In this document: piece by piece, positions 15,001 to 17,842 of the stretch
Layout of the letters: every line of letters begins with the position of its first letter
How positions within the stretch are numbered: position 1 is the first letter of the stretch
IMG/VR virus record: IMGVR_UViG_2703718801_000005
Location: 1-17,842 of that record
Length of the DNA: 17,842 nt
Source: a virus
Taxonomy: Duplodnaviria > Heunggongvirae > Uroviricota > Caudoviricetes
Direction: 5' to 3' (one strand)
Made by a program: the position numbers

Positions 15001-17842
15001 ACAAAAATAACCTTTCGGGGCTATATTCCTCAAACGCCAGCAAAATCTGGCGTCGGGATTGGCGTCCTGGATAGAGACCGCGACAGATACACGCCGCGAG
15101 CGTGTTTTTTATTGTCGTATGCACGCGCACATCTGAATTATGGTGGGCTGTGTGGGGGCGGAGAGATCCGCGCCGGTCGGTTTCCCGGTTACGCCAACCC
15201 TGCACAGTTCACCACCAGACGATTGGCGTCGTCGGTGGTGAGTTATTAAGAAACCACCAGAGGGCGTCATTATGACAACTAAAATTTCTGTTGAAACTCT
15301 CTCCCCGATCACCCATAACCAGATTCCTGTTATTACCACCGAACTTTTGGCGCAGCTTTACGGCACTGAGCCGGTGCGTATTCGCCAGAATCATCATGAG
15401 AACAAAGTACGCTTCGTTGAAGGGAAACACTTTTTCAAAGTTGTTGGTAATGACCTTAAAGAATTGCGGGTAGCTTTAAACTACTCACAAAATTTGCGGG
15501 TTACTTTAAGTAACTCACAAAATTTGCAACCATCTTTAAGAGGTTTGCAAATTTCCCCCAAAACTCGCTCCCTCATCCTCTGGACAGAACGCGGAGCAGC
15601 CCGTCATGCAAAAATGCTCGAAACTGATCAGGCATGGGAAGTGTTCGAAAAACTGGAAGACTGCTATTTCAGCCAGGGAAAAACAACACAAACCGAACAG
15701 CAGTCGCAGATTCAGCCACAATTCACAGCCGAGGAAATCATCCTCCTTTGCTACATGCAGCTCTGGATGGAAAAAGCCCAGGACCTCAGCAAACACCTGT
15801 ATCCGATCATGAAAGAGCTGAACTCCTCATACACGAACAAGCTGTATGACATTGCGTTTGAAACCATCTACATGGTGACGAAGAACAGAGACGCGCTACT
15901 GCGGGAGGCGGCACGGCTTGACCAGTCAAGTTTCGTTGTCCAGCGGGCCAGACCAATGCTGAAAAGCCTGCGGGCAAGACAATTCGAGTTTTAAGGCCAG
16001 ATTTGACAAATCCGCATTAGCGGGGATATATTCCGCTCCATGGTGCTGAACACACCTTCGAAAGCGGAAACCGCGCCCGTCAGTCATGCGGATTTTTTAT
16101 GTCCATTTTTCAGATATGGTCGGGTAGCGCGTATACCGAAAAACAGCCGCAAGGCTAAGGATGCGGGCCGAACTTTCGACGGTGTTCAAGTACCCGACCG
16201 CCCTGCTGAACACGGGGTGATCTGAACGAATCGAAAGGACATAAAACTATGAGCACTCAACTCGTATTCAAATCCCACGTTCTTGAAACGATCGAACACG
16301 ACGGCAAACAGTGGTTCACTGCCGCGACTTTGGCTTCTGCACTGGAGTATTCGCGCGGCGATAAAATCACCCAGATATACAACCGCAATTCGGATGAGTT
16401 TACTCCTTGTATGTCAATCAACCTCAAAATGAGGTTCAACGGGATCAACAATAGCTTACGAGAGAAAGATGTGCGTATTTTCTCTCTACGCGGTGCCCAC
16501 CTGGTAGCGATGTTCGCAACAACTCCAGTAGCCAAAGAGTTCCGTCGCTGGGTATTGGATATTCTGGACCGTGAAGCTGAAAAAAGCGCTATACCGCCAC
16601 AACCTCATATTCAGCCGCAATTCACAGCAGAAGACATCATCCTGCTCTGCTACGTTCAACTCTGGATGGAAAAAGCACAACAACTCAGTAAACAGCTATA
16701 CCCCGTCATGAGAGAACTGAACTCTGATTACTACGGGAAACTGTTTGATCTGGCCTACGAGACTCGTCATATAACCAACCGGACTCGCGACACATTGCTC
16801 CGCGAAGCAGCAAAACTTGATCCCGCCAACTATATGGTGCATAGGGCCAGAAGCATGCTGGCGCAACTACGGGCAAGACAATTTGAATTCTGAAACCAAA
16901 GGAGCTTCGGCTCCTTTTTTGTTGGGAAAATCCAGTGAGAGGGAATAATGAACCAGACTATCTTCCTCCGAAGTAAGCAGCAGCAACAATTCGCCATTAA
17001 CGCAATCCTTGCAACAACTCTCGATAAAGACAAACCCGTTACGATCCGCATCACCGATTACAAGCGGAATCTCGATCAAAATGCCAAATTTCACGCGATG
17101 GTCGCTGATATCTCCCGACAGGTTCAGTGGTGCGGCAGATGGCTAAAACCAGAACAGTGGAAAGTTTTGTTAATCAGCGGTCATGCCGTGGCGACAAAAC
17201 AGGAAGCCGATGTTTTACCCGGTCTTGAAGGCGAATGCGTCAATATCCGCGAAAGCAGTGCGCAGATGAGCGTGAAGCGTATGGCAAGCCTGATTGAGTA
17301 CACAACTTCCTGGGCTGTGGATAAGGGGGTCAGATTTACCGACAGGAGGTACGAATGAGACGACAGCGACGAAGCATTACCGATATAGTCTGTGAAAACT
17401 GCAATTACCTTCCAACGAAACGCTCCCGAAATAAACCCAGGCCAATCCCCAACGAATCTGATGTAAAAACCTTCAATTATACGTCTCACCTGTGGGATGT
17501 CCGGTGGCTCAGACGTCGTGCAAGATTTAATAGTCACTCCGGATAGTTCAATGTACGAGGAATAAGATGATGGCAAACCTACGCAAAGAAGCGCGTGGCA
17601 GAGAATGTCAGGTACGGATTTACGGCGTATGCAATGGCAATCCTGAAACTACAGTTTTGAACCGCCCCGGGAATCCTGGAGACTAAACTCCCTGAGAAAG
17701 AGGTAAACAGGATGACTAAAAATACACGTTTTTCCCCCGAGGTCCGTCAACGGGCAGTTCGTATGGTTCTGGAAAGTCAGGGCGAATATGACTCACAATG
17801 GGCGGCAATTTGTTCCATTGCCCCAAAGATTGGCTGTACGCC

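Follow-up and report, generated by a model that had tools for sequence, protein, structure and literature searches.

Phages are known to place dyad-symmetric sites inside the genes of the proteins that bind them. In lambda-type origins, dyad-symmetric iterons lie inside the O gene, and similar arrangements are found in P22 gene 18 and in terminase small subunits with the pac site in their own gene. Roi of phage HK022, an antirepressor-like DNA-binding protein with pRha and KilAC domains, is likewise reported to bind a site inside its own gene (Clerget & Boccard 1996, J Bacteriol 178:4077). The present analysis concerns an ORF6N-domain gene in a stretch of 17,842 nucleotides (nt), positions 1 to 17,842 of the IMG/VR virus record IMGVR_UViG_2703718801_000005 (Caudoviricetes), which is called the window below and is an E. 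coli lambdoid prophage with the ORF6N gene in its nin region. The 30-bp repeat array of this gene was shown to be three tandem copies of one 27-bp, odd-centred, A/T-centred dyad, a conserved cis feature of ORF6N-domain genes.

The array, at 15464-15553, consists of three head-to-tail 30-bp units of 10 codons each, in frame with the gene. A preliminary description, made from the sequence alone, had placed three tandem repeats of about 30 bp with small palindromes inside the ORF6N gene at 15462-15550. The repeats were confirmed and these coordinates were correct to 2-3 bases; each unit is indeed palindromic, but the palindromes are larger than noted, with 27 nt, 13-nt arms and a single central base. 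The gene and its units are as follows.

15272..15994, plus strand: host gene (ant), 240 amino acids, with the ORF6N domain at residues 12-115 and a P22_AR_C domain at residues 146-210
15464..15493, plus strand: repeat unit 1, encoding LRVALNYSQN; palindrome at 15464-15490, TTGCGGGTAGCTT T AAACTACTCACAA, centre 15477
15494..15523, plus strand: repeat unit 2, encoding LRVTLSNSQN; palindrome at 15494-15520, TTGCGGGTTACTT T AAGTAACTCACAA, centre 15507
15524..15553, plus strand: repeat unit 3, diverged, encoding LQPSLRGLQI; palindrome at 15524-15550, TTGCAACCATCTT T AAGAGGTTTGCAA, centre 15537

The palindrome of unit 1 has 10 Watson-Crick pairs among its 13 arm positions and one further G·T pair, and those of units 2 and 3 have 11 of 13 each and were both called as inverted repeats. 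The arms of unit 2 reach 19 nt when the AAATTT junctions are included. Units 1 and 2 are identical at 25 of 30 positions, while unit 3 shares only 17 of 30 with either of them and is, as judged from its sequence, a diverged third copy. Common to the units are the outer TTGC..GCAA/ACAA and the central CTT-T-AAG; arm positions k = 4-9, counted outwards from the centre, differ among units 1, 2 and 3. The peptide pattern L-x3-L-x3-Q is recognisable across the units. Tandem Repeats Finder placed an array of period 30 at 15464-15527, with 2.1 copies, 85% matches and a score of 93, and gave a second, overlapping row at 15483-15540.

Compared with 3.9 ± 1.9 in shuffled sequences, 13 palindromes with at least 10 of 13 pairs were found in the whole window, and three of them are spaced exactly 30 bp apart in the array. 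Further palindromes of 10-11 of 13 pairs are centred at 974, 5977, 9322, 10806 and 12997, for example TCAATCCAGAATG C GATTCTGGATTTA and TAGTTAACATTAA C TCGAAGTTAACTA. The degenerate motif TTGYGRN5TTWAAN5YYRCAA had no good match elsewhere in the window, the sole other match using all 3 allowed mismatches. It had been proposed that the repeats could be operator sites for a regulator that bridges the two antirepressor paralogs of the locus. This proposal was not supported, since the motif does not recur in the window and the paralogous Bro-N gene has a different dyad of its own.

The ORF6N match of the gene (Pfam PF10543) scored 68.5 bits against a cut-off of 27.8, with residues 12-115 on profile positions 3-86, and the identical gene in RefSeq is annotated as an ORF6N domain-containing protein. 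Because the match takes 104 residues for 84 profile positions, the gene carries about two units extra relative to the ORF6N family.

The family was sampled with the window and 419 fetched loci. These 420 sequences gave 231 distinct ORF6N domain DNAs from phages of E. coli, Salmonella, Yersinia, Azospirillum, Lactococcus, Clostridioides, Bacillus and Paenibacillus, and from P1-like and Acinetobacter-type phages; the IMG/VR part of the sample consists of the best 80 matches per query. The best palindrome with 13-nt arms lay 30-96 nt upstream of the Trp codon in LWTE(R/K)G in 217 of the 231 distinct DNAs, and this interval holds only about a fifth of the possible palindrome centres. The mean best score was 10.5 of 13 within the interval and 8.3 outside it. 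The dyad falls in the coding sequence for the segment that follows the second beta element and precedes the conserved L-W-T-E-R/K-G strand. Moreover, the ORF6N domains of Lactococcus TP901-1, Azospirillum Cd, C. difficile CDMH1, Bacillus Carmel_SA and Paenibacillus BN12 are 35-42% identical to that of the window, and their genes have the best palindrome at the same place with a sequence unrelated to the E. coli one (for example, AACAACATCCAAA A TTTGGATGTAGTC and GACTGACCCTCTC T GGGAGGGTCAGTT). The TP901-1 palindrome is unique within its 37.7-kb genome.

The distinct odd-centred 27-mers numbered 108, and their arms showed 81% Watson-Crick pairing, which dropped to 23-27% when the partner arm was slid by 1-3 bases. 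All arm positions k = 1-13 exceeded the column-shuffle expectation (z 4.9-14.7), although these z-scores are inflated and not calibrated probabilities, the centres having been picked as best-scoring maxima in related sequences, which is to be counted against the binding-site reading given below. Three or four Watson-Crick pair types occurred at 11 of the 13 arm positions, and the centre base was A or T in 102 of the 108 versions. The symmetry ends at k = 14-15, and the element is therefore 27 bp long. Given the choice of centres, the relatedness of the sequences and the cut at 80 IMG/VR matches per query, the family-wide numbers describe a strong pattern.

The comparisons supported a constraint that acts on the nucleic acid, and not on the protein only. 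A signal in the DNA had been suggested before, and this idea was supported. The palindrome is retained in three codon phases with unrelated peptides; its centre fell on codon position 2 in 169 cases, on position 1 in 23 and on position 3 in 22. Acinetobacter-type genes have essentially the same 27-mer (TTGTAGGTGACTT A AAGTCACTTGCAA) read one base out of register, which gives FVGDLKSLAN and not LRVTLSNSQN. The amino acids change on both arms in a compensatory way, as in GTA..TAC (Val..Tyr), GTT..AAC (Val..Asn) and GTG..CAC (Val..His), and more such swaps were seen among the unit variants (ACT..AGT, TCT..AGA and GTT..AAC). Furthermore, Arg..Ser codon pairs covary synonymously on both arms (CGA..TCG and AGA..TCT), and in more distant genes the entire outer arm is swapped, with CACAGA..TCTGTG for TTGCGA..TCGCAA. 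When synonymous codons were permuted within each gene, much of the symmetry was lost and pairing fell from 10.5 to 6.6 of 13.

The preliminary description had also stated that synonymous divergence under the same amino-acid repeats would indicate selection on the protein. The outcome was the opposite: in the enterobacterial set, synonymous codon-pair differences were lowest in the unit (14%, compared with 34% in the 30 codons upstream and 23% in the 30 codons downstream). In addition, codons 65-92 of the window ORF6N gene hold 3 of its 3 TTA and 4 of its 5 TTG Leu codons. Together with the predicted disorder of the extra repeats, the three codon phases, the synonymous covariation and the permutation result make it very improbable that the units are purely protein-level repeats, with selection on the repeated peptide and an incidental DNA symmetry, even though they are in frame, keep the L-x3-L-x3-Q pattern and vary in peptide repeat number across homologues.

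As for the form in which the nucleic acid is recognised, the non-Watson-Crick cells of the ORF6N set comprised 64 G·T, 78 A·C and 128 others, and pairing was 76% at k = 1 and 94% at k = 2. Because there is no G·T excess and the symmetry runs through the centre in ORF6N genes, a double-stranded DNA dyad is favoured over a sense-strand mRNA hairpin. The aligned sequences fit a double-stranded dyad; they would also be compatible with an antisense RNA or with a hairpin or cruciform formed by the DNA.

The sense strand at 15440-15575 was predicted to fold as three consecutive hairpins (-32.4 kcal/mol, z = -3.1), and 1 of 200 shuffles was as good. The units might be RNA hairpins in the ant mRNA, stem-loops that modulate translation, mRNA stability or Rho access in an operon controlled by isrK and C4 RNAs. 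The plentiful compensatory changes, with several pair types at most arm positions, and the membership of the gene in an RNA-regulated operon would agree with such a role. It is nevertheless unlikely, because G·T pairs have no surplus over A·C pairs in the ORF6N set, and in the Bro-N set they are so few as to be the opposite of what sense-strand RNA predicts; the complementarity of ORF6N dyads at k = 1-2, moreover, falls where a loop would be unconstrained. Searches of the repeats for Rfam families, promoters, terminators and small RNA (sRNA) complementarity gave nothing credible. In an Rfam scan of 14900-16400, no match in 15440-15575 came near its gathering score; the best one in the repeats, rivX on the minus strand, reached 21.7 bits where the gathering score is 100, and the matches to CbSR14 and mir-9428 look like chance. 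The promoter and terminator scan found no site within the repeats. No complementarity of at least 7 nt was found between the repeats and isrK, C4 or the sRNA-Xcc1-like region, and a single 8-mer complementarity between the repeats and the leader was taken as chance.

Some other identities were rejected as well. On anatomy only, the lack of spacers ruled out CRISPR-like or RNA anti-CRISPR repeats, and palindromic repeats within an open reading frame (ORF) do not fit a type III toxin-antitoxin RNA array. The element is also too small for attC-like sites, and its vicinity has no integrase. A_AAT_TTG was discarded as a -1 frameshift site, since translation in the -1 frame would end after 7 codons and other lineages do not have the feature. 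By eye, the element did not match the LexA, CRP, IHF or Fis consensus sites.

Similar dyads were found in two related families of N-terminal domains. The first of them is represented in the window by the paralog of the ORF6N gene.

16249..16893, plus strand: Bro-N + P22_AR_C paralog, the downstream neighbour of the ORF6N gene (NinB also lies downstream)
16415..16441, plus strand: weak odd-centred palindrome of the Bro-N gene, CAATCAACCTCAA A ATGAGGTTCAACG, 9 of 13 pairs

In Bro-N homologues (loci L422-L501), the best palindrome lay at the same place in 43 of 48 distinct sequences. The 22 versions of this dyad showed 81% pairing around a core of TCAA-W-(A/T)TGA, with the centre always at codon position 3 and with 3 G·T against 17 A·C mismatches. 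Three of them were perfect (13 of 13) and related by compensatory swaps, for example CCTTGACCGTCAA T TTGACGGTCAAGG compared with CCTTGACGGTCAA A TTGACCGTCAAGG. The pRha/Roi relatives of HK022 roi (loci L502-L581) comprised 61 distinct sequences, and 38 of these had a covarying dyad at about codon 45. Its core is CCTCAA A TTGAGG, and CCGGCTTCCTCAA A TTGAGGTTTCCGG is one version; the palindromes of HK022 roi (L421, 4656..5381) were all weak. The core TCAA-W-TTGA recurs in the three families, ORF6N, Bro-N and pRha/Roi, and in three reading frames.

Neighbours and C-terminal domains vary between the loci, and the ORF6N domain is the sole constant partner of the dyad. As the only component common to all loci, it makes the gene's own product the simplest candidate binder. 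We put at slightly below an even chance the reading that the dyad is bound by a two-fold-symmetric protein, which may be the product of the gene in which the dyad lies. The earlier suggestion of protein-binding sites is thereby retained as the best reading of a candidate site; the suggestion that the array is the functional unit is not, since a single palindrome is the ancestral and commonest state. A two-fold-symmetric protein would read the dyad as double-stranded DNA, and the product may act in cis on its own gene, by autoregulation or by cis-targeting. Extra copies of the palindrome would add sites, and arm-to-arm correction by template switching probably helps to keep positions that are not contacted symmetrical.

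The structure of the protein was predicted with AlphaFold2 from an alignment of 86 sequences, and the model had a confident core and a mean predicted local distance difference test (pLDDT) score of 68.6. It contains strands at residues 13-15, 18-22, 54-58 and 100-105 and helices at residues 23-30, 34-43, 59-72, 106-111 and 119-138. Unit 1 forms the end of helix 59-72, and residues 73-91, which are most of units 2 and 3, had a pLDDT below 50. The protein would tolerate the extra 10-30 residues, as these fall in a low-confidence surface loop. If a weak resemblance to MerR/winged-helix proteins holds, this loop would lie between two putative wing strands. A sequence search of the PDB with the ORF6N protein gave no match.

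Besides the inflated z-scores, several points weigh against a sequence-specific self-site. The units of one array, also at locus L335, differ at the inner positions k = 4-9, and each of them is still symmetric; a single sequence-specific dimer would not require this, and a hairpin or cruciform structure, or correction between the arms, would agree with it better. In addition, conservation of the putative recognition helix (I..N[FYH]..N) contrasts with the variability of the palindromes, and an identical helix sequence occurs with different unit types. Position k = 1 of the Bro-N dyads is mostly non-complementary (8/22), and the argument from symmetry through the centre is therefore not general. 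No recognition code that would relate the palindrome sequence to the putative helix was visible, and any signal would be confounded by relatedness.

The main alternative to the self-site model is a structure-specific reading, in which a single-stranded hairpin or a supercoiling-driven cruciform would be read by a structure-specific protein or be a recombination hotspot. Arms of 13 bp with an A/T-rich centre have the size of classic cruciform-forming repeats such as the ColE1 inverted repeat. The symmetry is kept while the sequence is free, even between units of one array, and arrays arose repeatedly; the element also stands at the junction of a variable N-terminal half and a highly conserved C-terminal half, and structure-forming DNA would account for this mosaic junction and for the unit duplications. 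We still judge it improbable, since 13-bp arms with 2-3 mismatches extrude poorly, the symmetry of ORF6N dyads at k = 1 is unneeded for a hairpin, and no structure-specific partner is common to all loci.

As had been advised at the outset, the copy number of the unit was compared among close homologues from GenBank phages and IMG/VR contigs. It proved to be polymorphic between identical flanks, with 1, 2, 3 or 4 units. The corresponding lengths of the N-terminal domain were 351, 375, 405 and 435 nt, and the protein alignment agreed. The units are head to tail, their length is a multiple of 3, and copy number differs among close relatives, as in a variable number tandem repeat (VNTR). In ORF6N genes as a whole, one copy of the palindrome is the ancestral and commonest state. 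In the 4-unit alleles, both middle units are identical in DNA, as expected of recent slippage. The 2-unit alleles have differing first units (types A, B and D) joined to a last unit of type C, and single-unit genes of both kinds exist, which suggests that the mixed arrays were built by unequal exchange between alleles with different unit types. With 3 bp added, the element makes a unit of 30 bp (10 codons), which would have been multiplied to 2-4 copies in this lineage through replication slippage and unequal recombination. Slippage, which the preliminary description had offered as a source of repeats in the protein, would account for the copy number, but not for the palindromic nature of the unit.

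The palindrome was also multiplied independently elsewhere, with three copies 42 bp apart at L361/L366, two copies at L335 that are 27 bp apart and differ in their inner sequence, and three copies spaced 32 and 60 bp at L249. A period of 30 bp had been taken as about three helical turns. This was not supported, as 30 bp corresponds to 2.86 turns and the independent arrays have spacings of 27, 32, 42 and 60 bp; the period is set by the size of the unit and by the reading frame.

A known class of mutation in E. coli, arising at a high rate, is the correction of quasi-palindromes by template switching. A functionless, self-perpetuating quasi-palindrome might accordingly be considered, in which template switching keeps the arms alike, slippage alters the copy number and the loop tolerates the result. 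Near-identical alleles that differ in copy number, identical B-B duplicates and extra units that map to the low-confidence loop are all in agreement with it. However, a neutral element would be expected to vanish in many lineages, whereas this one holds a single position in Proteobacteria and Firmicutes phages although its sequence is unrelated between them, and it occurs in three related domain families; the unit also shows reduced synonymous divergence and fixed rare Leu codons. A neutral origin of the symmetry is, in our view, an unlikely explanation.

The ORF6N gene was found 100% identical in NZ_AP042515, and relatives occurred in 969 of 5,426 complete E. coli genomes. In Stx (Shiga-toxin) phages, the two positions that match the ORF6N and Bro-N genes carry the annotations Ant and Roi. 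The features upstream of the gene are listed below.

13384..14130, minus strand: DUF4145 protein, upstream of the ant module
14350..14655, minus strand: helix-turn-helix antitoxin (HigA), upstream of the ant module
14655..14963, minus strand: HigB-like toxin, directly upstream of the ant module
14998..15275, plus strand: control module upstream in the ORF6N operon, with the isrK-orf45-anrP layout
14998-15027, plus strand: predicted sigma-70-like promoter, TTGACA-18-TATATT
15034-15110, plus strand: isrK sRNA, Rfam match of 74.7 bits (gathering score 50)
15089-15105, plus strand: predicted terminator-like hairpin of the isrK match
15102..15275, plus strand: small ORF whose stop overlaps the ant start at 15272 (ATGA)
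15136-15219, plus strand: C4 antisense RNA, Rfam match of 66.7 bits, above the gathering score

A c4-a1b1 match in this module was just under its gathering score (45.9 compared with 46.7 bits). The module resembles isrK-orf45-anrP of Salmonella Gifsy-1 (PMC4825925) in having a promoter, an isrK-like sRNA with a terminator, and a small ORF that overlaps the start of an antirepressor-like gene, the comparison being one of layout. In the passages of the Gifsy-1 study that were considered, no coding-region element of anrP is described, and no palindrome, inverted repeat or stem-loop is mentioned.

A second promoter-like site at 16003-16032 has the identical two hexamers and the identical 18-nt spacing as that at 14998-15027, and an sRNA-Xcc1 match lies at 16118-16207 ahead of the Bro-N gene (67.5 bits; gathering score 53). 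With a promoter-like site and an sRNA match before each gene, both antirepressor-like genes have their own sRNA-type leader. The P22_AR_C domains at 15690-15994 and 16615-16893 are close paralogs (IQPQFTAE[ED]IILLCY[MV]QLWMEKAQ...RARQFEF), and the N-terminal domains come from different families. From these sequences, the ORF6N and Bro-N genes are apparently a case of module shuffling inside one locus. Other short tandem repeats of the window lie at 10155-10187 (16-bp × 2.1), 10458-10478 (11-bp × 1.9) and 10713-10774 (GAACAG × 5.5).

Proteins of the ORF6N, Bro-N and Rha types account for some of the most frequent antirepressor annotations in the genomes of phages and prophages, and the roles of their N-terminal domains are almost uncharted. 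No description of an intragenic dyad was found in the searchable literature on ORF6N, Bro-N inverted repeats and antirepressor multiple-locus VNTR analysis, and, to judge from titles or abstracts, none of the listed papers that mention ORF6N appears to study the function of this domain. A dyad whose position is fixed in different phyla and reading frames is a concrete target, which predicts what the domain binds, or which structure matters, and where. It also suggests cis regulation or cis action of ORF6N-type genes. Their synonymous sites are not neutral, and the variable number of 30-bp copies in the ant genes of Shiga-toxin phages is a by-product of a palindromic element and not an ordinary protein repeat. 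A wider proposal, which we regard as possible though doubtful, is that antirepressor-like regulators of phages have the predicted recognition site of their N-terminal DNA-binding module within the DNA that encodes this module, in ORF6N and apparently also in Bro-N and pRha. This site would be a family-wide, self-addressed and co-evolving cis element, multipliable in frame, and unnoticed because it lies in coding sequence.

Compared with known systems, the array is like a coding-region VNTR in its head-to-tail, in-frame units with 1-4 copies among near-identical alleles. However, an ordinary VNTR has no reason for a palindrome that is kept across phyla and reading frames. The lambda-type origins and their like have dyad-symmetric site arrays in frame in the gene of the binder, encoding a tolerant linker, and the position is conserved while the sequence and copy number vary between phages. 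Unlike lambda-type origins, the ORF6N locus lacks an A/T-rich unwinding region next to the sites and has neither replication nor packaging genes; one site is usual, and the units of one array differ in inner sequence. To our knowledge, ORF6N has not been described as an initiator. In comparison with HK022 Roi, the N-terminal domain is ORF6N and not pRha, and the palindromes of roi are weak. Nevertheless, the two share the gene neighbourhood (the lambdoid nin region, adjoining ant) and fall in one broad class of phage regulators, whose N- and C-terminal modules can be exchanged. If the proposed binding by ORF6N holds, they would also share a cis site within the coding sequence of its would-be binder.

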